64,000 nt of DNA from the NCBI GenBank assembly GCA_029260875.1, contig JAJDCL010000028.1, forward strand, positions 1,161 to 65,160, in the 5' to 3' direction. A program made the translations under genes and the position numbers. The notes beneath the pieces were generated by a model. It ran no database searches, was not told the DNA's origin, and saw nothing but the letters and a program-made list of their open reading frames with translations. Within the stretch, counting starts at the first letter, position 1. The number at the start of each line of letters is the position of its first letter. Of this stretch, positions 4,325 through 19,151 are shown one piece after another. This stretch comes from Candidatus Saccharimonadota bacterium (lineage in GTDB: Bacteria > Patescibacteriota > Saccharimonadia > Saccharimonadales > OFTM59).

Positions 4325-5803
4325 TTAGTTGTTTGATGTAACCAAAAGCTCAGTACGTAGTAAAGTAGCGCGCCCAACAATTTGTGAGTCCGATAACGTA
4401 TAAAGCGCAGTGTAATTACTGTTGAAGTAGGGCGTAGAACTAGAGTATGCAGACGATAGTTCTTGTTTGTTGGTACCGTCAAAGTCAAAAACATTAACGT
4501 GGTTATTGCTCACAAGCGTCAGGCGGTGACCATCCATCCAAACGGCTCTTTGAGGAGTGGCTAGCTCAAGCCCTGTATTGTAGCGATAGTGGCGAGCCGT
4601 CTCGGTATCATAAACGACAAATTTGCTACCCGACTGAATCTGTACAAAGCGGGCGTTAGTAGAAAACGATGCAAACTGGGGGTCTTCAATACGCAGAAGC
4701 GCAGCCGGGATAATCTTTGCTGCTGGGTTACGTCGCAACGCAAGAACCGGGTCGCGCAATATATACATCCTTTGATCATCAGTGGCACCAGCCAAGACGT
4801 ACCAGCGACCAGAAAAACGAGCTATATCCAGTATGTAGCTAGTATCGACCGGTAGCTCCTTAACGGTATAAATTTGGTCACCTTCACGAATACGCACCGC
4901 GACGTTTCCTTCCGCCGCACCGCTACTGGCAACGTACAAGAGCACATCGTTACCGTGAGATTTGAACTGTATGACACCGTTTAGTAGTGGCACGGGGGCC
5001 TGGCCGTTTAGTTCGGCTGTCATCAGCGTTTGAGCAGAACGGTCATGCAAGTAATAACGATCAAAGCGCTTATCGCGCAAAACTACATCTGTAAACACAG
5101 TGCCACTAAAATTGCGACTCAAATTGCGACTTAATGCAGGCGCCTCGTGGTCAATCAATACAAACTCAGTGCCTGTGTCAAATGTGTGCCTGACAACGAC
5201 GTGGCGATTGTCGGTTGACCATTCAACCACATCAATGTCATGCCGATCACCATTAATACTGAATAAATCTGGTGGCAGAGCAAGGTTAATAGCAGTGGCT
5301 AGCTCTGAATTTAGGTCGACCAAATCAAAACTTATGTGAGCACCGGGCTGCCTGACAATCAACCAGCGACGATCCGGGCTCTGCGTAGAAAAAACAGGCT
5401 TTTCTGCATAAAGTTGTGTCTCGCGCGACACCAATGATTCCGGAAACAACACCGGATAAACCAGTCGCTCGATTTTACCCCCGAGTAGGTTAATGGTTTT
5501 TTCCCATGTACGGTAACCAGCGCGCCTAACACTGATATCGTACTTGCTTGACGGCATAATTAGGCGTTGGTCTGTCGCCCCTTTTAATTCACCATTCACA
5601 TAAACATCTGCTCTCTCGGGATGGGCATCCACAAAAACTAAACCGTTCTGATTAATTGCCCCTGTCTGCAGGTCAAATGTATAGCCGTAGGCTTGCAGCA
5701 CCAGAAGTAGTGACACCAAACTAATAGCAACCACCATCAGCACATAGCCCACGTACAGACGTATGCGGTGTTGTCGTTGTTTGATTGGGTCTAGGAAATC
5801 CAT
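4325..5803 (-). CDS. Membrane-anchored PEGA-domain protein
   Basis: 492 aa. An N-terminal TM helix is followed by a PEGA-like segment (ADVYVNGELKGATDQRLIMPSSKYDISVRRAGYRTWEKTINL) and a long beta-rich region. Confidence 0.6.
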   Translation of the reverse strand: MDFLDPIKQRQHRIRLYVGYVLMVVAISLVSLLLVLQAYGYTFDLQTGAINQNGLVFVDAHPERADVYVNGELKGATDQRLIMPSSKYDISVRRAGYRTWEKTINLLGGKIERLVYPVLFPESLVSRETQLYAEKPVFSTQSPDRRWLIVRQPGAHISFDLVDLNSELATAINLALPPDLFSINGDRHDIDVVEWSTDNRHVVVRHTFDTGTEFVLIDHEAPALSRNLSRNFSGTVFTDVVLRDKRFDRYYLHDRSAQTLMTAELNGQAPVPLLNGVIQFKSHGNDVLLYVASSGAAEGNVAVRIREGDQIYTVKELPVDTSYILDIARFSGRWYVLAGATDDQRMYILRDPVLALRRNPAAKIIPAALLRIEDPQFASFSTNARFVQIQSGSKFVVYDTETARHYRYNTGLELATPQRAVWMDGHRLTLVSNNHVNVFDFDGTNKQELSSAYSSSTPYFNSNYTALYTLSDSQIVGRATLLRTELLVTSNN

Positions 5804-7140: not shown

Positions 7141-7827
7141 ATGGAAGAACTAAATCCAAAGTTTGGACCAGTTAGCGTATTTTACGAGGGTATTTATAGC
7201 AGGCATAAGGAGTTACTATTTCTTGCTGATAGTTTCCGGCAAGGAATGGAGTTGATCGCCGACTTGGAGCACGTTAACGAAATACTTCGCAGCTCACCAA
7301 GACCGGATTTAGTTATGACCGAACGACTAGAAATGATGCCTGTAGAATCACCCTCCAAGCTGGGACGGATTAATAATTTCGTTCCGAATTTGTGTGGATT
7401 CGGTGTCCCATTATTCGAAGACCAGAAACAACCCGGGTTTGCGTCAAATGAATTAAAACGCACATATATAGGCCGACGAACGCCCACCGAAGAAGAACGC
7501 GCACAATATTTCCTTATTGGTGCAAGAGGTAATTATCATAAACAATTAGAATTCGCAAAAGAGAACGGCGTAGACGAAGAGCTGGCCCGTGACATGATAT
7601 TAATGACACATATTGATAAAGAAGCATTTATGAGGATGTGGATATTGATGCCTGAGCTGACAGCTGCTTTGATGGCAGCTTGTTTAGACACTCCCGGATC
7701 AGAGAGAAAAAACATTAAAGAAGAAGTTTTTGTTGCATACGCATTGATGTCACGGCTAGTTGATCGAAATGATGCGAGAGCCGTCAAAAAAGACGGTAGT
7801 ATTGATCCCTGGCTACTCTGTCATTAA
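7141..7827 (+). CDS. Hypothetical protein (orphan)
   Basis: 228-aa ORF preceded by a very AT-rich 100-nt spacer. No recognisable motif. Confidence 0.45.
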   Translation: MEELNPKFGPVSVFYEGIYSRHKELLFLADSFRQGMELIADLEHVNEILRSSPRPDLVMTERLEMMPVESPSKLGRINNFVPNLCGFGVPLFEDQKQPGFASNELKRTYIGRRTPTEEERAQYFLIGARGNYHKQLEFAKENGVDEELARDMILMTHIDKEAFMRMWILMPELTAALMAACLDTPGSERKNIKEEVFVAYALMSRLVDRNDARAVKKDGSIDPWLLCH

Positions 7828-7892
7828 GTAGTCATCTCAACCTTGTAATTATCTTGATTACGAGAAGTGCTAATCTGTTACAATAGCGTTAT

Positions 7893-9362
7893 ATGATAGA
7901 CGAAAAGGCAAGGACACGATTTGCGCCTAGCCCTACGGGTTATTTGCATGTAGGGGGGATCCGGACAGCTGTTTTTGCGTGGCTCGTGGCCAGACAGAGC
8001 GGGGGACAGTTTGTTCTGCGCTTGGAAGATACGGACAAAAAGCGTGAAGTAGAAGGCTCAGATAAACATCTCATGGAAAGTTTGCGCGTACTTGGGCTTA
8101 AGTATGACGAAGGCCCGGATATAGGCGGTCCGTTTGCGCCATATCGTCAGAGTGAGAGGCTAGACAATTACAAGGCCTGGGCTCAAAAACTTATTGACGC
8201 AGGGCGGGCATATGCCGATCCTTACACAGCCGAAGAAGTCCAGGGCTTTCGCGAAGAAGCCCAAAGAAACAAACAACCATTTTTATACAGAAATCATCGC
8301 CCTGAGAACACCCAGCCCTGGGACGGGGCTAAACCTTTGCGGTTCAAATCAGACCCTAAACCATATAAGTGGCACGACACCATTATGGGTGATTTGTCTA
8401 CCGGCCCAGAAGTCATAGATGATTTTATCCTGGTTAAATCTGATGGGTATCCGACTTATAACTTTGCGCATATTATTGACGATGCAGAAATGCAGATAAC
8501 GCATATAATCCGTGGTCAGGAATTTATCGCAAGCGTACCAAATTATCTAAATCTTTATGAGGCCCTCAATATAGCTCCACCGATAATGGCGACGGCCCCG
8601 CACGTACTAGGGCCAGACGGTAAAAAGAAGTTAAGCAAACGCGACGGCGCTAAAGATGTGCTGGATTACGTGCGCGACGGGTTTTTGCCCGAAGTTTTAG
8701 TTAATTTTATTGTCAGTCTTGGCTGGAACGACGGAACCGAACAAGAAATATTTACGCGGGAGGAGCTTATTCAAAAGTTTAGTTTGGACCGAGTACAAAA
8801 AAGTGGTGCACATTTTGACGAGCGACGCCTTGCTTGGATGAATGGCGCACATATTCGCCAATTGAATCTGGATGATTTATATAAAAGGACAGTTGGCGAA
8901 GGAGATAAGAGTCAGGAGATAGGAGTCAGAAATTTTTGGCCTGAAGAGGCACGTAAGCAACCTGATGAATACAAAAAACAGGTTTTAGCGCTTGTTCAGG
9001 AGCGCCTGAAATACTTTGCGGAACTGCCGGAGCTAACCCGCTTTTTCTTTATAGATTTGCCAATTAGTCCAGAGCTTATTTCTGGGAACAAACAACTTAA
9101 TAAATTTTCAGGCTCAGAGCTGGCAAGCATGCTAGAACAAGCAAAACACGCACTAGAGCAGAGTAGTTTTACTGTTCAGGATATAACAGATAGGTTGAAT
9201 CAATTATTAGAACGAACTGGCCAAAAACCGGGCGTACTTTTTAGCCTTATACGTATTGCCACAACTCAAGCCCCCGCAAGCCCAGCTTTAGCAGAAACCT
9301 TAGCTATCCTAGGCAAAGAAACGGCGCTGCAACGAATTAATCGACAATTAACAGCGTTTTAA
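7893..9362 (+). CDS. gltX: Glutamyl-tRNA synthetase
   Basis: 489 aa with the class I motifs RFAPSPTGYLHVGG (HIGH) and KLSKRDG (KMSKS). Confidence 0.95.
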   Translation: MIDEKARTRFAPSPTGYLHVGGIRTAVFAWLVARQSGGQFVLRLEDTDKKREVEGSDKHLMESLRVLGLKYDEGPDIGGPFAPYRQSERLDNYKAWAQKLIDAGRAYADPYTAEEVQGFREEAQRNKQPFLYRNHRPENTQPWDGAKPLRFKSDPKPYKWHDTIMGDLSTGPEVIDDFILVKSDGYPTYNFAHIIDDAEMQITHIIRGQEFIASVPNYLNLYEALNIAPPIMATAPHVLGPDGKKKLSKRDGAKDVLDYVRDGFLPEVLVNFIVSLGWNDGTEQEIFTREELIQKFSLDRVQKSGAHFDERRLAWMNGAHIRQLNLDDLYKRTVGEGDKSQEIGVRNFWPEEARKQPDEYKKQVLALVQERLKYFAELPELTRFFFIDLPISPELISGNKQLNKFSGSELASMLEQAKHALEQSSFTVQDITDRLNQLLERTGQKPGVLFSLIRIATTQAPASPALAETLAILGKETALQRINRQLTAF

Positions 9363-12949: not shown

Positions 12950-13291
12950 ATGAATTATCAAAATCCGGACGGCGTAACCGTCCACGATGGGTTCCCAAAC
13001 CCAGCCACCGACACTTCACTCCAACCTCTTGATCTAAACAGCCTGTTAATAACACACACCGCTACAACCTACTTAATGCGCCTGTCTGGAGATGAATGGC
13101 AGGCTTTAGGCATTTTTGACGGCGATATATTAATTGTTGACCGATCCGTAAATGCCCGCCCAAATGATTTAGTTGTCTGGACCAAAGCCGACCGGTTCAT
13201 CATCAGCCACGAACACCAAGTAGAGGAGGGCAGCCCCGTCTGGGGCGTAATCACCTCAACCATCCACCAGTTTAGAAAGGTGAGCAGATGA
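12950..13291 (+). CDS. UmuD-like S24-fold protein lacking the Ser/Lys dyad and the cleavage site
   Basis: It aligns by eye to E. coli UmuD from CGFPSPA onward (here DGFPNPA...LDLNSLLITH...SGDEW...DGDILIVD...). I prefer the ATG at 12950, preceded by AAAAGGA, over the track start at 12770. The stop overlaps the umuC start in ATGA. Confidence 0.7.
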   Translation: MNYQNPDGVTVHDGFPNPATDTSLQPLDLNSLLITHTATTYLMRLSGDEWQALGIFDGDILIVDRSVNARPNDLVVWTKADRFIISHEHQVEEGSPVWGVITSTIHQFRKVSR

Positions 13292-14574
13292 AGTCACCAG
13301 TTTTTGCACTTATAGACTGCAATAACTTCTTCGTTTCATGTGAGAGGCTATTCAGGCCGGACCTGGAAGGCAAACCAGTAGTGGTTATGTCGTCCGGCGA
13401 TGGCTGCGTGGTGGCGCGCAGCAACGAGGCCAAGGCGCTTGGCATTCCAATGGGCGCGCCAGTATTCAAATATCGTCATATCTTTAAAGCACAGGGCGTA
13501 GTGCAGTTCAGCGGGAACTTTGAATTGTACGGTGATATTTCTCGTCGTATTACCGATGTACTAACTTCTGTTACCCCAAAAATTGAGGTGTATTCGGTGG
13601 ATGAATCGTTTTTAGATCTTGGCGAGCTAGCCATTGATGATTACGAGGCGTGGGGCAGGACAGTGAGCGACAAAATCTGGCAATGGATCGGGGTGCCGGT
13701 ATCCGTAGGCATAGCGCCTACCAAAACTCTCGCCAAACTAGCTGCCGACCAGGTCAAAAAAGACCCCGACCTCAATAGCGTCCTGAACCTCATAAGTGTG
13801 AAAGGTTTATCCTTTCACACTTGGTTGCGGACTACGCCTATCCAGGATGTGTGGGGTGTTGGGTGGCGGTCGGCACCGAAAATGAAGGCCGAGGGGATCC
13901 ATAACGCACTGCAACTCAGCCAGTTAAGGCCACAACGTGCTCAGCAGTTGATGGGTATTCACGGCCGGCAACTAGTAGCAGAATTAAACGGCCTGAGTTG
14001 CTATCCGCTAGAGCGAGAAGAAAGGGCACAAAAAAGCATAGCCCGTACCCGCACGTTTGGCGAAGATACAAGTGAGCTTGGTTCTTTAGAGGCAGCATTG
14101 GCATCATTTACCACCAAAGCCGCCTTCCGGTTGCGCGCAGACCGTCAGCTTGCCAAGCGAGCCGGTGTGTTTGCCAGCACCAATAAGCACAAACCCGGCT
14201 ACCGGACGTGGCAACGGGAGGTGTGTTTCCCGGTTGCGACAGCTGATACGGGCAAACTTATCGGAAGTGTCATAGACTTATTTCGTGAGTTTTACAATCC
14301 GCACGTTAAGTACCACAGGGCGGGGGTCTGGTTACAAGATTTTGTATCGGCTGATTATTTGCAAACTGACGTGTTCGGGGCTGTAAATGTAGTGGAAGAA
14401 GACCGATCTAAGGCCCGTATGCAAACCCTAGATTCCATCAACGAGCGTTTCGGTCGCAGCACCATCCGCTACGCCACCGAAGATCTCGGCAACGCCTGGC
14501 AGCCCAAGCATCAGCTACGCAGCCCCCGCTATGTCACCCGCTGGAACGAACTGCCGGTTGTTCGCAGTAGCTAA
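13288..14574 (+). CDS. umuC: Y-family translesion DNA polymerase (UmuC-like)
   Basis: 428 aa with the N-terminus FALIDCNNFFVSCERLFRPDLEGKPVVV and the motif YSVDESFLD. Translationally coupled to the umuD-like gene. Confidence 0.9.
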   Translation: MKSPVFALIDCNNFFVSCERLFRPDLEGKPVVVMSSGDGCVVARSNEAKALGIPMGAPVFKYRHIFKAQGVVQFSGNFELYGDISRRITDVLTSVTPKIEVYSVDESFLDLGELAIDDYEAWGRTVSDKIWQWIGVPVSVGIAPTKTLAKLAADQVKKDPDLNSVLNLISVKGLSFHTWLRTTPIQDVWGVGWRSAPKMKAEGIHNALQLSQLRPQRAQQLMGIHGRQLVAELNGLSCYPLEREERAQKSIARTRTFGEDTSELGSLEAALASFTTKAAFRLRADRQLAKRAGVFASTNKHKPGYRTWQREVCFPVATADTGKLIGSVIDLFREFYNPHVKYHRAGVWLQDFVSADYLQTDVFGAVNVVEEDRSKARMQTLDSINERFGRSTIRYATEDLGNAWQPKHQLRSPRYVTRWNELPVVRSS

Positions 14575-14587
14575 ATCCCATCTGTTA

Positions 14588-14596
14588 TGCTACAAT
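14588..14596 (+). promoter_or_regulatory. Extended -10 promoter (TGCTACAAT) for the tRNA-like/tRNA-Glu transcription unit
   Basis: TGCTACAAT lies at 14588-14596, 15 nt before the tRNA-like 5' end at 14611. The -35 (TAGCTA at 17-nt spacing) is weak. Confidence 0.4.
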
Positions 14597-14610
14597 TTTC
14601 CGGTCTTTAA

Positions 14611-14799
14611 GGCCCCGTCGTCTAGTGGTCCAAGATATCTGCATCTTTACCCCACAAAACAGGTTTTGCGGGGACCCCGTATCATCCAGAAGATCGCGGG
14701 TTCGGTGTACGAAGAACGGAGTGATAAGATAAGCTTGCTTAATCTTAGCGCGAGTACCGCAGGAAAGAGCGTAGCGATATCCCGCAGATTTAACAATAA
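14611..14799 (+). ncRNA. tRNA-derived structured module (Glu/Asp-like 5' half and split T-arm, no acceptor 3' strand); pseudo-tRNA or novel tRNA-like RNA
   Basis: GGCCCCG-TC-GTCT-AGTGGTCCA-AGAT-A-TCTGC-ATCTTTA occupies 14611-14649. A 24-nt hairpin follows at 14650-14673, then CCAGA-AGATC-GCGGG-TTCG at 14686-14704. A structured insert of about 75 nt follows, then CCCGC at 14781-14785. No CGGGGCC acceptor partner precedes tRNA-Glu. Confidence 0.3.
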
Positions 14800-14874
14800 G
14801 GTCCCATCGTCTAGCGGTTAGGACACCAGGTTCTCATCCTGGCAACAGGGGTTCGATTCCCCTTGGGATCACCA
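14800..14874 (+). tRNA. tRNA-Glu(CUC), CCA encoded
   Basis: Sequence is GGTCCCATCGTCTAGCGGTTAGGACACCAGGTTCTCATCCTGGCAACAGGGGTTCGATTCCCCTTGGGATCACCA. The anticodon stem is CCAGG/CCTGG, the loop is TT-CTC-AT and the T-loop is GGTTCGATTCC. Confidence 0.9.
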
Positions 14875-16375
14875 CAAGAGACTCATCTACATCAGATGGG
14901 TCTTTTTTGTTTGCTATAACAGATAACAGCGGGCTTAATTTTGCGGTTCCAAAACCGTTTTCAAAGTCATATACGATTCCATCTGGAAAAAGTAACTTTT
15001 GAATATCTTGTCGTATCTTGGTATTTGCACGGTTCCAGAATATGTCAGGTGTGGTTATGAAACTCATTGCATCATCTACGATCTGTTCTTTTTCCTTTAC
15101 GTACTGGTCGGCCTCAATTTGCTCATCCTCTAGATCATTAATCTTTTCTGCAATATTGGCGATCTGAGCCTGCTTATCCTCCTCAGTGATCTTATCCAAG
15201 ATAAACTTTTCTGTGGTAGCTTTTCTAAGTTGGCGGTAATAGTCGATCTCCTTGCTTATGCGTGCGGCGTTCTCAACAGCTTGGCCATACTCATCGTTCC
15301 ACGCTCTGAGCACGATTACCTTGTATAGCTTGGTGATACCACTGAGGGGTCTTAGGTTCTCGAGGTACTCCCTGAATAATTTATGCGTTATATCAGCATC
15401 TGCGCTGGCTTTTCTGCCAGTTACTTTCTTTTTGCAGGTAGGCTGATTGCAATGGTACATGGGGTAGTAGCTACCACTCCTGCCTCTAGACGAGCTGGCT
15501 GTAAGTGCCTTGCTGCAATTTGAGCACAGTAAGGTGCCTCTCAATGGGAACATGTCATCGCCACGAAGTACGTAGGTCTTTTTTGAGCCCTGTATCAAGT
15601 CAATGTTCTTGTAGATTACTTCCTCATCAACCAACGCCTTGTGCATGCCTCTATGGACTTTAGGGGATAGCTTATTCTTGGTATAACCCGCATAGATTAG
15701 ATTCTGGAGTATCTTTTTCAATGCATCAGTTGATTTTGGCTTACCACTCTTGGTCTGTATGCCTTGCGTAAACGCATAGCGTGCAATCTGTGCAAGTGAA
15801 AAAGTACCAGTTGAGAACTTAACGAGAACATCAGTAATCTTTGATGCGTAGACAGGATCGGCAACAACACGTGCGTTCTTTTTAGTGTAGCCAATAGGTG
15901 CCGAGTGTGGCCAGCCACCTTGCTCGACCCTTACACGCATGCCGCTCACTGTACGTATCGCACGGATCTCATTATCGAACTGTGCCGCAGCTGCAAGGAT
16001 TGCCTCAAGAAATCTGCCGACAGGATCATCATCAATAGGCTCAGTAACAGATACAATCCTCACACCATACTTAGCAAGTGCAACCTTAATACCATAGTAA
16101 TCACCTAGGTTGCGTGCCAGTCGATCAATTTTCCAGATGTATAGAATCTCAACCTGATTCTTTTTATCTTTGACGTATTGGAGTAGGTTCTGTAACTCTG
16201 GTCGATCTATGAACTTGGCCGATTCGCCTCGCTCTCTGAATATGTTTTGTTCTGGAACTAGAGTTTTCTGATCTTGTGCAAACTTTTTACACTCTTTCTC
16301 TTGAGAATCTAGGCTGGTTTTGCCATCAACTTGTTCCTTTGTGGAGACACGTGTATAGATAATTCCAACGCTCAT
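14834..16375 (-). CDS. Large serine recombinase (integrase)
   Basis: 513 aa. The N-terminal resolvase domain has IIYTRVSTKEQ (catalytic Ser) and IDRLARN. The recombinase domain has GGWPHSAPIGY. A Cys-rich zinc ribbon (LLCSNCSKAL...YHCNQPTCKKK) and a coiled-coil tail follow. The 3' end is antisense to the terminator and tRNA-Glu. Confidence 0.9.
   Translation of the reverse strand: MSVGIIYTRVSTKEQVDGKTSLDSQEKECKKFAQDQKTLVPEQNIFRERGESAKFIDRPELQNLLQYVKDKKNQVEILYIWKIDRLARNLGDYYGIKVALAKYGVRIVSVTEPIDDDPVGRFLEAILAAAAQFDNEIRAIRTVSGMRVRVEQGGWPHSAPIGYTKKNARVVADPVYASKITDVLVKFSTGTFSLAQIARYAFTQGIQTKSGKPKSTDALKKILQNLIYAGYTKNKLSPKVHRGMHKALVDEEVIYKNIDLIQGSKKTYVLRGDDMFPLRGTLLCSNCSKALTASSSRGRSGSYYPMYHCNQPTCKKKVTGRKASADADITHKLFREYLENLRPLSGITKLYKVIVLRAWNDEYGQAVENAARISKEIDYYRQLRKATTEKFILDKITEEDKQAQIANIAEKINDLEDEQIEADQYVKEKEQIVDDAMSFITTPDIFWNRANTKIRQDIQKLLFPDGIVYDFENGFGTAKLSPLLSVIANKKDPSDVDESLVVIPRGIEPLLPG
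14881..14908 (+). terminator. Intrinsic terminator of the tRNA-Glu unit; also part of the left att-like repeat
   Basis: ACTCATCT-ACATC-AGATGGGT forms 8 bp including one G.U, followed by CTTTTTT. Confidence 0.7.
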
Positions 16376-16413
16376 GGAACCAGTATATAACGAAACTGTA
16401 ACTGTTATGAAAA

Positions 16414-16572
16414 CTAATTTAGATGTTTTGGAACCGAACTACGTATTGTTTCTCTCGCAACGGATTCCAGTAACACAATCAGGCGTTCTATCTCATCATC
16501 AGAAAACTGCTTGAACTCTGTACCAAGCAGTTTTCTCGCCTCTTTAATTGTGATGATGGGATCTGGTTGCAT
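16414..16572 (-). CDS. Small ORF (52 aa) upstream of and co-oriented with the recombinase; possible directionality or DNA-binding factor
   Basis: Own translation gives MQPDPIITIKEARKLLGTEFKQFSDDEIERLIVLLESVARETIRSSVPKHLN. It is below the track's size cut-off and ends 38 nt before the recombinase start. Confidence 0.35.
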   Translation of the reverse strand: MQPDPIITIKEARKLLGTEFKQFSDDEIERLIVLLESVARETIRSSVPKHLN

Positions 16573-16743
16573 TTGTGGCTCTCGTGCGAGCCAAGAAAAA
16601 AACAGCCCGCAACTTTAATAGTTGTCTTGGCTGTTTGCCTATGCAGGAAATTATACAGCTCACAGCAAAATCCGTAAATGTTACCACGGTGTTAACAACA
16701 TAGCCTATAGGTGTTTCTACCCCCGATGTAATAGAATAAAAAG

Positions 16744-16864
16744 GTCTAAACCAACAATTGAGGCGCACCAACAGTGCGTGATTAAGCCTTGTAATGGGCA
16801 TCACGCAGGCAGTAGGGCTTAATAACTCTATTGTTGGTTTAGACACCAGCGTGGTGTCCTTTTT
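16744..16864 (+). ncRNA. Candidate sRNA of about 120 nt: closed three-way junction plus intrinsic terminator
   Basis: P1 pairs 16744-16758 with 16830-16844 (15 perfect bp). P2 is 16763-16779. P3 pairs 16781-16788 with 16816-16823. The terminator GACACCA-GCG-TGGTGTC-CTTTTT lies at 16842-16864. A TAGAAT -10 lies at 16732-16737. Confidence 0.4.
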
Positions 16865-16881
16865 AATTTGAGGAGAAAATA

Positions 16882-16986
16882 ATGGGTTTCATTAGAAACG
16901 ATTGGCATGAGCAAGGTATTGTTACCAAGATACTACTTGTTCTTGGTCTGATCATCGCAGCCATTGTTTGGCTTGCTAAAAACTGA
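16882..16986 (+). CDS. 34-aa single-TM micro-protein
   Basis: AGGAG at 16871-16875 lies 6 nt before the ATG. The product is MGFIRNDWHEQGIVTKILLVLGLIIAAIVWLAKN. Below the track's size cut-off. Confidence 0.4.
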   Translation: MGFIRNDWHEQGIVTKILLVLGLIIAAIVWLAKN

Positions 16987-17087
16987 TTGTTTTTCAGTTT
17001 TTTCAGTTACAAAAGCGGGTCTGAAAAACAATTGTTTTTCGTTTTTCCGTTTTAGAAAATCAGCTTAAAAAGTTGATTGTTTTTCAA
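16985..17087. repeat. Iteron/operator array: ATTGTTTTTC three times at exact 45-bp spacing, the middle copy within a perfect 18-bp palindrome
   Basis: ATTGTTTTTC occurs at 16986-16995, 17031-17040 and 17076-17085. GAAAAACAATTGTTTTTC occupies 17023-17040. Confidence 0.6.
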
Positions 17088-17148
17088 TTAATCAATTTTC
17101 CCACCAACTCCTTTGAATAAGATAGGCATCAGGGGTACTATATTAGTA

Positions 17149-18846
17149 ATGAAAGCAACTAAGGTAACAGTCCATAACTACCGATCGATACACGATGCCA
17201 CCTTTGATCTGGCTGACTATGCTCTGCTCATCGGATCCAACAATGCTGGCAAGAGTACATTTGCTAACGCCATCAGGGTTTTTTATGAAAAAGACGGTTT
17301 CAAGTACGATTCAAAGAAAGATTACCCATTTGATCTAGTAAAAGATGCCGAGCGTGAATCTTGGGTGGAAATATGGTTTGAGCTCGATCAAGATGAGTAC
17401 GATAACCTCGCAGAGAAGTACAAGCAAGTTGATAAGGTGTTGAAAGTTCGCAGGTATCTAGAAACCGCAACTTACAAGAACCACGAGGGCAAGGCTGGAT
17501 CTGGTCAGATTTTTGGCTACAAGACTGACGGCACCTTAGATAACGAGGCGTTTTATGGCGCAAAGAACGTTCAAAGTGGAAAGTTCGGAGAGCTGATTTT
17601 TATACCTGCCATCAGTAAGGTAGATGATCACACAAAGTTTAGCGGTGCATCTGCGTTGAGAGACCTTGTAACTGATATCCTCTCTGGTACCACTGACTTT
17701 GATGCCAACTACGGCGCATTAGAGGAAAACTTTACGACTTTCTCTAGTGCTATGCAATCCTCCAGTACCGCCGATGGCCGTTCCCTAAAGGCTGTTGAGG
17801 ACTCGCTGACTGGCATGCTAGAGGATTGGGGTATTGGGTTCAAGTTGACTTGGAAAACTCCCTCGATAGCTGAGATCATCAAGTCCATGATTAACTCCAC
17901 CTACACCGACCTAGCGCACGACAAAGAGATATTGATAACAGATGCTGGCTCTGGTTTTCAGCGACACCTTATCTACAGTGTTATCAAGACGGGTGCAGAT
18001 TTTGCTGCAAAAAAACCTAAAGCTAAAAAGACTAGCTTTGAACCAGAGCTTAGATGGATCGTATTCGAGGAACCAGAGGCTTTTCTCCATCCTCCGCAGC
18101 AAAACGAGCTTTCACGTAGCTTGCAGAAACTATCCGAGCTAGATAGTACACAGGTGTTATGCACCACTCACTCGCCGAACTTTGTAAACAAGAATATGCA
18201 GGCCATCACCAGCGTTGCTCGTGTGCAGAAAAACAAGAAAGGCTATGCTGATTTCTATCAGATTAGCGACACGACTTGGCAAGATATCACCGACAATAAC
18301 CAACTTATTAGCGCACTGCCATCAGCACCAGCGGCGCACCCTGATGATCTAGATCCTGAAATGGAGGCCATCAAGTACGCAATTTATCTGAATCCAGATC
18401 GTGCATGCATGTTCTTTGCTAAGAGAGTGCTGATTGTTGAGGGCGCAACAGAGGTTGCGTTAATAAACCACTTGATTGATATCGGTGAAATAAAGGCGAG
18501 CCTATCTGGCCTGCATGTAATTGATGCAATTGGCAAGTTCAACATCCATAGGTTTATGAAACTCCTTGAGTGTTTGGGCATTGAGCACTCCGTCTTGCAT
18601 GATGCTGATGCACCAGCAAAGACCTTACAGCAAGAGATTAATCAGCTTATCCAAGATTCCTCCAATACTTTTACGTACAAGATTGAAACGCTTGACCCTG
18701 ATCTAGAAACTTACCTAGGCCTGCCTGCGGTTGGTTCACGCCACGATCGTAAGCCACAGAGTGCGATCTATAACTACAACAACAGCAACTACGACACAGC
18801 AAAGATGGCCAGTTTCAAAACTCTGATTGAGAGCCTTGTTTCCTAG
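17149..18846 (+). CDS. OLD-family nuclease (ABC-type ATPase + C-terminal TOPRIM), stand-alone
   Basis: Motifs are Walker A GSNNAGKST, Walker B IVFEEPEAFLHP, H-loop TTHSP, and TOPRIM LIVEGATE ... HDADA. I prefer the ATG at 17149 over the track's TTG at 17113, which is in the same frame. Confidence 0.85.
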   Translation: MKATKVTVHNYRSIHDATFDLADYALLIGSNNAGKSTFANAIRVFYEKDGFKYDSKKDYPFDLVKDAERESWVEIWFELDQDEYDNLAEKYKQVDKVLKVRRYLETATYKNHEGKAGSGQIFGYKTDGTLDNEAFYGAKNVQSGKFGELIFIPAISKVDDHTKFSGASALRDLVTDILSGTTDFDANYGALEENFTTFSSAMQSSSTADGRSLKAVEDSLTGMLEDWGIGFKLTWKTPSIAEIIKSMINSTYTDLAHDKEILITDAGSGFQRHLIYSVIKTGADFAAKKPKAKKTSFEPELRWIVFEEPEAFLHPPQQNELSRSLQKLSELDSTQVLCTTHSPNFVNKNMQAITSVARVQKNKKGYADFYQISDTTWQDITDNNQLISALPSAPAAHPDDLDPEMEAIKYAIYLNPDRACMFFAKRVLIVEGATEVALINHLIDIGEIKASLSGLHVIDAIGKFNIHRFMKLLECLGIEHSVLHDADAPAKTLQQEINQLIQDSSNTFTYKIETLDPDLETYLGLPAVGSRHDRKPQSAIYNYNNSNYDTAKMASFKTLIESLVS

Positions 18847-19151
18847 CTAGCAGCTAGGTTTCCATCACTATTACTCAAACAGATACAGGAGTGAGTTGCC
18901 GCACAGCGTTAACTATCTGCCACATAGCTATTAGTTCTCGCTTGATTTGTTTCCAGTTCGCACCTATCAAGCTCACCATTTAGAAGCTCATCTACTAGAT
19001 GGGCTTTTTACATGGCTCATGCTCAACAAAACTGGCGGTTTACCGTATACTGAAGCATAAGCGCGTTTTTACACGCGATATTTCCATATGGCGGGCAATT
19101 TATGTACACACAAAAGACCAAAATTAGTACGACATCGGATGGGCTGCGTTA

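Follow-up and report, generated by a model that had tools for sequence, protein, structure and literature searches.

Whether a bacterial tRNA gene can be expanded by unconventional introns, or whether the genes that give this impression are the remains of recombination, is the question raised by a tRNA-like module (14611-14799) located immediately upstream of an intact tRNA-Glu(CTC) gene (14800-14874) in a genome of Candidatus Saccharibacteria (TM7, Patescibacteria). All coordinates given without a locus number refer to the 64,000-nucleotide stretch of DNA analysed here, hereafter the window, and the loci used for comparison are designated by numbers preceded by L. An earlier reading made from the letters alone (the sequence-only reading) recognized in the module an ordered series of tRNA elements interrupted in the anticodon loop and in the T-loop, and proposed three options, namely a decaying tRNA gene, a scar at a tRNA integration hotspot, and a functional RNA of tRNA-like form that carries expansion segments or introns. 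The comparison with related loci leads to the view, to which we give a probability of roughly 0.72, that the module represents a mosaic pseudogene, or a scar of recombination, of a resident tRNA-Glu(CTC) gene of a sequence type named type B below, which still lies behind its own promoter and is carried as a leader. The first two options are really one explanation, supported by the intact orthologs of relatives, the breakpoints located in loops, the neighbouring recombinase islet and the tRNA fragments encountered at related loci. The result is deflationary: a candidate "bacterial tRNA with unconventional introns" is lost, and the way in which look-alikes of this kind come about is shown.

Homology of the module to type B tRNA-Glu

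Two sequence types of tRNA-Glu(CTC) are found among the related genomes, a 75-nt type A (GGTCCCATCGTCTAGCGGTTAGGACACCAGGTTCTCATCCTGG...) and a 77-nt type B (GGCCCCGTCGTCTAGYGGTYYAGGATATCTGGTTCTCATCCAGAAGATCGCGGGTTCGAATCCCGCNGGGGTCACCA), and it is from type B that most of the tRNA-like part of the module derives by homology. The first relic piece (14611-14641, plus strand) corresponds to type B positions 1-31, which comprise the acceptor 5' strand, the D arm and the 5' strand of the anticodon stem. Nucleotides 14611-14638 agree with real 77-nt type B genes of relatives at 27 of 28 positions (E 3e-7), and the whole piece differs from L165 and L162 only at position 3 or 7, at position 22 (G>A) and at position 31 (G>C). 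The second relic piece (14682-14704, plus strand) corresponds to positions 36-58, made of CAT, the 3' strand of the anticodon stem, the variable loop, the T-stem 5' strand and TTCG; it is identical over its 23 nucleotides (E 1e-6) to the genes of L008, L011, L013, L035, L164 and L165, and over 16 of 16 nucleotides to the part present in L162, the contig of which stops there. A third piece, the 10-mer TATCCCGCAG (14778-14787), spans the final bases of the T-loop, the 3' strand of the T-stem and the two opening bases of the acceptor strand, and is identical to a remnant in L064 and to the ends of the D modules, structured units lying downstream of tRNA-Glu, in L044 and L073. The A residue following CCCGC does not fit G7 of the first piece, and the pieces are therefore of mixed origin. 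Between them occur 41 nt with an 11-bp hairpin (14642-14681), then 73 nt (14705-14777), and on the 3' side of CCCGCAG the sequence ATTTAACAATAA runs directly into the type A tRNA. As judged by these alignments the tRNA resemblance of the module is a matter of homology, not of chance, and the earlier opinion that such an ordered match was unlikely to be fortuitous is borne out by the 27/28 and 23/23 agreement with functional type B tRNAs found in relatives.

The anticodon loop and the T-loop are classical crossover sites of integrases in tRNA genes. The breakpoints of the module are located at type B positions 30/31-35/36 and 58/59, that is, in precisely these two loops. They coincide with two of the integrase sublocations in tRNA genes described in PMC1635311 (citing Williams 2002), which include the anticodon loop, T-loop and 3' end.

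Direct reading of the sequence recovers every element of the sequence-only reading at its coordinates: the extended -10 TGCTACAAT (14588-14596), the string GGCCCCG-TC-GTCT-AGTGGTCCA-AGAT-A-TCTGC (14611-14642), the hairpin CCCCACAAAAC/GTTTTGCGGGG (14650-14673), in which 10 of the 11 pairs form and one is an A.C mismatch, the string CCAGA-AGATC-GCGGG-TTCG (14686-14704), CCCGC (14781-14785), the pairing segments AAGATAAGC/GCTTAATCTT (14726-14746), and the tRNA-Glu(CTC) directly downstream. The tRNA register indeed resumes after the hairpin; its start has to be moved from CCAGA at 14686 to the CAT at 14682, 4 nt earlier, which represents loop positions 36-38. The proposed match of CCAGA to the anticodon-stem strand amounts to 4 of 5 pairs only, and the thermodynamically preferred partner of AUCUGC (14637-42) is GCAGAU (14784-89).

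The same position in related genomes

UmuC, encoded just upstream (13288-14574), matches only metagenome-assembled genomes of Saccharibacteria, with a best identity of 77-79%. The relatives most useful for the comparison were obtained via the protein database (L162, L163, L164 and L165), and their UmuC identities to that of the window, 79% in L162, the closest relative, 78% in L163, 73% in L164 and 72% in L165, the last two being the syntenic relatives, can be set beside the 77% of L002. A search of the Joint Genome Institute (JGI) metagenomes with UmuC for close relatives yielded nothing above 65%. The module itself is covered by only one further contig, L001 from a Logan assembly, which is identical and breaks inside the tRNA.

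The promoter ahead of the module, P1 (14579-14596, plus strand), consists of ATCTGTTATGCTACAAT and includes the extended -10 TGCTACAAT; the same 26-mer is found in L002. An element of the form TGnTAnnAT occurs upstream of tRNA-Glu in 64 of 70 loci, and a generic sigma-70 scan recognized no -35/-10 pair at P1. The module begins 14 nt past TGCTACAAT, and in L044 the same element with the same spacing precedes an intact type B tRNA. The gene that presumably does the work in the window is the intact 75-nt type A tRNA-Glu(CTC) (14800-14874, plus strand), called by ARAGORN, scored 62 bits by the Rfam tRNA model and identical to that of L002 at 75 of 75 positions. An intrinsic terminator of its transcript follows at 14876-14906 (plus strand). 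The terminator search found none ahead of 14876, which makes co-transcription of the module with tRNA-Glu plausible.

The sequence-only reading had named an ordinary intact tRNA at this position in relatives as the mark of a plain pseudogene, and this is what L164, L165 and L162 possess, all of them of type B. In L164, where the order gltX-DUF3048-umuD-umuC ... histidine kinase is that of the window, an intact type B tRNA (4725-4801), located directly after umuC behind the sister promoter TGCTACTAT, is followed by a terminator, by a structured D module with a tRNA 3' fragment at its end, and finally by the kinase. The type B tRNA of L165 is intact and comes directly after umuC, behind the sister -10 TGGTACTAT, and that of L162, located behind TGCTACAAT after umuC-purK-purE, looks intact up to the end of the contig. 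Depending on the relative, the tRNA gene found in one and the same context belongs to either type: L162 (4990-5081) has type B and L163 (3425-3503) has type A, with a common umuC-purK-purE context and a nearly identical promoter. Gene replacement therefore does occur at this locus, and from such comparisons the tRNA gene itself appears to be swapped between lineages, types A and B interchanging at one locus among close relatives. L002 combines the promoter 26-mer of the window with a 143-nt structured leader and a type A tRNA.

As a separate observation on L002, a small gene (7371-7894) is inserted between umuC and the tRNA promoter, and the last ~25 nt of umuC (GCCGGTTGTYCGYAGTAGCTAAA) are duplicated on both sides of it.

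Tests for a tRNA and folding of the module

The module has neither an acceptor 3' strand or CCA region, nor a 7-nt anticodon loop, nor a T-loop. As the sequence-only reading had stated, no CGGGGCC partner of the acceptor strand precedes tRNA-Glu: both CGGGGCC and CGGGGTC are absent after CCCGC, and the sequence continues as AGATTTAACAATAA. The TTCG of the second piece is followed by GTGTACG..., which is not a TTCRANN T-loop, and CCCGC is 77 nt away. Excision of the first insert leaves a loop that still misses positions 31-35, and the joined pieces lack G31-T35 together with everything beyond CCCGCAG, which makes a complete tRNA impossible. The ARAGORN and Rfam checks that had been proposed call no tRNA or intron in the module: ARAGORN in its default, intron (0-300 nt) and relaxed-score modes makes no call on 14611-14799, and neither RF00005 nor Intron_gpI of Rfam matches this interval at E<=10.

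In Patescibacteria tRNAs, group I introns are a frequent feature of the anticodon loop and measure 184-894 nt (PMC13011429); the two inserts of the module, of 41 and 76 nt, are below this range. The idea of a split tRNA with its other half elsewhere was also considered and dropped, since T-arm and CGGGGCCA patterns retrieved in the window only the two real tRNAs and the single site of CGGGGCCA (28410, minus strand), which is unrelated. The 3' part of a type B gene was not found elsewhere in the window.

The minimum free energy (MFE) of the module, -51.7 kcal/mol, is ordinary for a sequence of its composition (z -0.88; 36 of 200 shuffles fold equally well) and gives no hint of selected structure. 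When the cloverleaf-like pairing of the sequence-only reading is forced, the energy is -39.0 kcal/mol, 12.7 above the MFE, and the MFE structure pairs AUCUGC with GCAGAU instead of forming the cloverleaf.

The segment between the relic and the working gene

The second interruption had been described as an internally paired insertion in the T-loop. The pairing is present; an insertion it probably is not, because its first 45 nt resemble the tRNA-Glu promoter and leader of relatives. This promoter-like segment, P2 (14705-14749, plus strand), was recognized by targeted alignment and belongs to a class named after AACAGATGTGATAAGAT: it shows a -35-like TGTACG (14706-14711), an extended -10 TGATAAGAT (14722-14730) and the start of a leader. 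Nucleotides 14714-14749 align with the tRNA-Glu promoter and leader of L130 (AACAGATGTGATAAGAT-AGGCGAGCTAGAATTTTAGC) at 31 of 37 positions (z 4.6-5.4), and at most one shuffle in 1000 does as well. Seven of 62 upstream regions of relatives reach p<=0.025 against the segment, every one of the AACAGATGTGATAAGAT class. The spacer of P2 is 13 nt long instead of 17, the 17-mer consensus alone is at chance level for P2, and none of the searches for an internal promoter by generic sigma-70 scan, position weight matrix, nhmmer or 17-mer consensus was significant. The similarity lends moderate support to the assignment of 14705-14749 to a second tRNA-Glu promoter class of the clade. The second insert is probably the 5' flank of an incoming type A gene, made of a promoter and a ~68-nt leader, joined inside the old T-loop. 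If the promoter reading is right, the AAGATAAGC/GCTTAATCTT hairpin would be the -10 region, and the internal extended -10 TGATAAGAT could also drive tRNA-Glu.

The rest of the segment (14750-14799, plus strand) is a leader containing the 10-nt tRNA or D-module 3' remnant TATCCCGCAG, identified as a shared 10-mer, and the A/T-rich spacer ATTTAACAATAA. The idea, formed by eye, that the second insert is a D module was demoted to a possibility: the profile search was negative, pairwise z values range from -0.9 to 3.1, and only the terminal TATCCCGCAG is common. The D-module similarity of the leader interior (14750-14799) is not significant.

The insert in the anticodon loop

In place of anticodon-loop positions 31-35, direct reading of the sequence places an orphan insert (14642-14681, plus strand) with its 11-bp hairpin at 14650-14673. 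It has no match in 160 related Saccharibacteria loci or in phage and plasmid collections, and the same holds for the second insert, neither of them having a homolog in anything searched. A pattern scan of viral and metagenome contigs for a type B tRNA-Glu carrying an anticodon-loop insert of 30-60 nt gave 0 matches. Comparison of the first insert with tRNA-Glu flanks on both strands revealed no coherent signal and no enrichment, and no repeat pair brackets it.

The recombinase islet and the signs of a hotspot

The order of genes in this part of the window is gltX, DUF3048, asparaginase, umuD, umuC, the module, tRNA-Glu(CTC), terminator, serine recombinase, small open reading frame (ORF), OLD-family nuclease and histidine kinase (19152-). 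A 96-aa ORF spanning the module (14531-14821), without match in Pfam, was taken as spurious. The large serine recombinase (14834-16375, minus strand; Pfam Resolvase, Recombinase and Zn_ribbon_recom) reads the opposite strand of the terminator and of the 3' half of tRNA-Glu, its stop codon (TGA) being located in the anticodon loop, so that its C-terminus VIPRGIEPLLPG is the reverse-complement translation of the tRNA. The recombinases adjoining tRNA-Glu in L002 (8072-9685) and L083 are only 30% identical, yet align to the same C-terminal end; the common C-terminal peptide was read directly in L002. The arrangement suggests that their attachment (att) site lies inside tRNA-Glu, which would be unusual for serine integrases.

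Beyond the recombinase and a 100-aa ORF, the islet carries as defence cargo an OLD-family ATPase/TOPRIM nuclease (17113-18846, plus strand; Pfam AAA_15 and OLD-like TOPRIM; PADLOC Old, E 2.6e-60). Its right boundary (18961-19009, plus strand), delimited by sequence comparison, consists of GTTCGCACCTATCAAGCTCACCA and a terminator ~80% like that at 14876-14906. The ~4.1-kb islet (14875-19009) thus delimited separates tRNA-Glu from the histidine kinase, and synteny with relatives resumes at the kinase (19152). In L058, L023, L044, L013 and L164, which have no islet, the kinase comes after tRNA-Glu directly or after short D modules. The two ends of the islet are formed by TCACCA plus terminator (14869-14906) and by a degenerate ...TATCAAGCTCACCA plus terminator (18974-19009), with GTTCG common to both; downstream of the islet no right-hand att copy of the type B 3' end was found beyond the degenerate ...TATCAAGCTCACCA.

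tRNA-Glu(CTC) is a recombination hotspot in Candidatus Saccharibacteria. Fragments of tRNA-Glu are found at about a fifth of the related loci. A same-strand copy of the first 12 nt of the tRNA occurs upstream in 7 of 63 non-redundant loci versus 1 on the control strand, and 17-22-nt fragments of the tRNA-Glu 3' end lie 130-190 nt downstream in at least 12 loci. In L004 and L082 such a 3' fragment is separated from the tRNA by a 3.4-kb HEPN/Shedu islet. Defence islets (OLD, Shedu) gather at this gene, and serine-recombinase genes overlap it.

Origin of the module and alternative explanations

The order of events that we infer is the following. A resident type B gene would have been hit at two recombination-prone loops, its anticodon loop and its T-loop. 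The first break would have exchanged 5 nt for a 41-nt sequence containing a hairpin, and at the second one the gene would have become joined to foreign DNA that carried, besides another promoter-like region and a short leader, an entire type A tRNA-Glu(CTC). It is this imported tRNA that would now do the job, with the recombinase and defence islet after it, and a site-specific recombinase may have taken part in these exchanges. Transcription from P1 most likely runs through the relic and makes of it a long 5' leader, P2 possibly firing too, and a cut by RNase P at the A/T-rich junction 14799/14800 would discard the relic leader. Having no acceptor stem, anticodon loop or T-loop, the relic cannot be a tRNA. 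Since tRNA-Glu(UUC) can read GAG, tRNA-Glu(CTC) is likely to be dispensable, and its gene would then tolerate the landing of such elements. That the retained pieces are almost perfect suggests a recent disruption.

Several points weigh against this account. The promoter-like reading of 14705-14749 relies on targeted alignments and fails the profile scan (nhmmer E 83). In the collections searched no donor of the first insert was found, and no clean att repeats flank the module. The islet has its boundaries downstream of the intact tRNA, and these alone do not account for the module. The 5' and middle pieces are located upstream here, whereas classical integration displaces 3' fragments downstream; elements of reversed orientation that displace the 5' part are reported in PMC1635311 (citing Zhao & Williams 2002) and PMC4383910 as known but rare. 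The retained pieces are nearly unmutated (0 changes in 23 nt and 2-3 in 31 nt), which means that either the damage is recent or the pieces are preserved. Finally, sampling of the module within the species comes down to one further contig, the identical L001.

The scarcity of mutations in the tRNA pieces would also suit a module kept because it had been exapted as a structured leader or small RNA, one that might, for example, modulate how the downstream tRNA-Glu matures or act as a small RNA built on a tRNA scaffold. Such an exaptation has a favourable setting, with leaders of more than 60 nt between the -10 and tRNA-Glu in 23 of 64 related loci, several conserved leader and trailer families among which the Y-core (see below) covaries strongly, and modules lodged inside the loops of tRNA-Glu fragments (the D-loop in L020, the anticodon loop in L007, L046 and L064). 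The MFE structure of the module even has the same layout, a 5' half, the long-range AUCUGC/GCAGAU stem around hairpins, a 10-nt spacer and the tRNA. We nevertheless hold this main alternative to be unlikely, as the module matches none of these families by hidden Markov model (HMM) or covariance model (CM), its inserts have no homolog in the collections searched, its folding energy is ordinary and the nearest relatives are devoid of it. More speculative still, and in our opinion rather improbable, is the broader proposal of an undescribed system of Saccharibacteria, in which tRNA-Glu(CTC) would be serially overwritten by integrase-less cassettes and by serine-recombinase elements bringing their own promoter and tRNA. 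The old pieces would become scaffolds of structured RNAs, co-transcribed with the tRNA and released by RNase P, and the module would be one such leader RNA on a tRNA scaffold, specific to its lineage and acting as a regulator or decoy.

The scar of a type B gene also has to be weighed against a tRNA-Glu-like gene that would be functional in spite of two unconventional introns or expansion segments, its product being spliced or employed unchanged, the third option of the sequence-only reading. The order of the elements, the stems flanking both interruptions and the frequency of group I introns in Patescibacteria anticodon loops (PMC13011429) speak in its favour, but the option has to be considered very improbable: the acceptor 3' strand and CCA region are absent, positions 31-35 do not come back upon removal of the first insert, the inserts (41/76 nt) have no homologs in the collections searched and are far shorter than the group I introns (184-894 nt; PMC13011429), Rfam and the intron mode of ARAGORN are negative, the cloverleaf lies 12.7 kcal/mol above an otherwise ordinary fold, the second insert looks like a promoter flank, and an intact tRNA with the same anticodon starts 0 nt downstream. 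An assembly artefact, in which reads from different metagenomic tRNA-Glu alleles would have been joined into a chimera, is hardly to be credited either. Types A and B both circulate in related populations and L001 breaks inside the tRNA, but L001 repeats without difference all 254 nt that lead from umuC across the module and into the type A tRNA, chimeras do not make 41-nt hairpin inserts inside a tRNA, and similar layouts of fragment plus tRNA are found in many independent assemblies.

Comparison with known systems

Archaeal split, permuted and multi-intron tRNA genes (Nanoarchaeum, Caldivirga) encode all parts of the tRNA, and rely on bulge-helix-bulge motifs and a splicing endonuclease. The module resembles them by its tRNA pieces separated by unrelated sequence in a small-genome episymbiont, but differs in lacking the acceptor 3' strand and the greater part of the anticodon loop, and in having an intact gene next to it. 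A closer likeness is offered by the tRNA fragments and pseudo-tRNAs of integrative elements, the Islander-type islands (PMC1635311, PMC4383910, PMC9897764), which have in common with the module pieces identical to a real tRNA, breaks in the anticodon loop and T-loop, an adjacent intact tRNA of the same identity, a neighbouring recombinase with a cargo islet, and recurrent fragments in relatives. Unlike these fragments, the relic is the promoter-proximal 5' part plus the middle part of the gene and not a displaced 3' fragment, it has two breaks, the neighbouring enzyme is a large serine recombinase instead of a tyrosine integrase, clean att repeats are missing around the module, and the working tRNA is encoded by a complete second gene, different in sequence type, and not by a regenerated chimera. 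With the group I introns of Patescibacteria tRNAs the module shares the phylum, an interruption within the anticodon loop, and the fact of being missed by annotation tools; these introns self-splice, measure 184-894 nt and leave a complete tRNA (PMC13011429), whereas the interruptions of the module measure 41 and ~76 nt and its exons cannot yield one.

The Saccharibacteria units called here U-core, Y-core, D modules and L-type leader occupy the same position by tRNA-Glu, often between tRNA-Glu fragments, with a similar fold layout, but exhibit no significant sequence or CM similarity to the module. Its membership of the U-core or Y-core group was accordingly rejected, as the nhmmer profiles U, Y and D and the CM R1 (Y-core) found no match in 14611-14799.

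Structured modules around tRNA genes of Saccharibacteria

These four groups were defined in the present analysis and have no Rfam match in the loci scanned. Rather than the module of the window, it is these conserved structured flanking units that merit a study of their own. The Y-core consists of ~95 nt arranged into three helices; 95% of the cells are paired, 17 of 26 pairs show compensatory changes, and neither any of 500 shuffles (0/500) nor any slid register approaches this. Its G.U pairs favour the tRNA-sense strand, and the two members scanned against Rfam (L004 and L046) gave no match. Members occur in L040 (8583-8677), L020 (9923-10019), L004 (10958-11052 and 11856-11951), L046 (9543-9637) and L034 (10377-10474), depending on the locus in the D-loop of a pseudo-tRNA-Glu leader (L020) or in trailer modules ending in tRNA-Glu 3' fragments (L040, L004). 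The U-core (GTTTTCCTTGCTTGGCCGAG-hairpin-CGAGCAW) was found in L007 (7412-7510 and 7291-7358), L046 (9337-9434), L064 (8308-8404) and L019 (9226-9315). At three loci a tRNA-Glu 5' fragment, lying upstream of the intact tRNA-Glu, has it inserted into its anticodon loop, and in L019 it belongs to a trailer module; its closing stem tracks the sequence of the fragment itself (CAGG/CCTG versus CTGG/CCAG).

The D modules, located downstream of tRNA-Glu in L164 (4802-4964), L044, L073, L028, L057, L085, L105, L020, L094, L007 and L046, are built as tandem units, sometimes repeated, in which a bidirectional terminator is combined with covarying hairpins, with a stem like that of a T-arm and with a tRNA 3' end of 17-22 nt. 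Some of them enclose cargo without an integrase, namely HEPN plus Shedu in L004/L082 and a pilin-like gene in L020. [quoted passage not shown]

The L-type leader, ~150 nt long, precedes tRNA-Glu(CTC) in L002, L014, L057 and L148, and contains a covarying helix (GTTTTTC/GAAAAAC versus AAATTTC/GAATTT versus AAATTCC/GGAATTT) around an exposed CCAAGGAG. The window has a leader of this type at another tRNA gene, tRNA-Leu(CAA) (2795-2879), where it extends from 3024 to 2880 on the minus strand and matches the tRNA-Glu leaders by nhmmer with E values of 1e-20 to 1e-34. It lies between the TAACAGATATAAGTATAAT promoter and tRNA-Leu, no Rfam family matches it, and GACGA stands right at the 5' end of the tRNA. 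Further leader families, located upstream of tRNA-Glu, open with a copy of the tRNA's own 5' end (L004 7350-7546, L082, L083 3687-3780; L026, L027, L091, L115, L028, L085). A family named W (GGCCTCACCGTCTAACG...CCGTTAGAC) forms a long helix with its own complement and is found in tandem in L004, and a family named V has the arrangement GGYCNCAT-hairpin-...CTCGGAA-hairpin with a ATGTAAACA loop.

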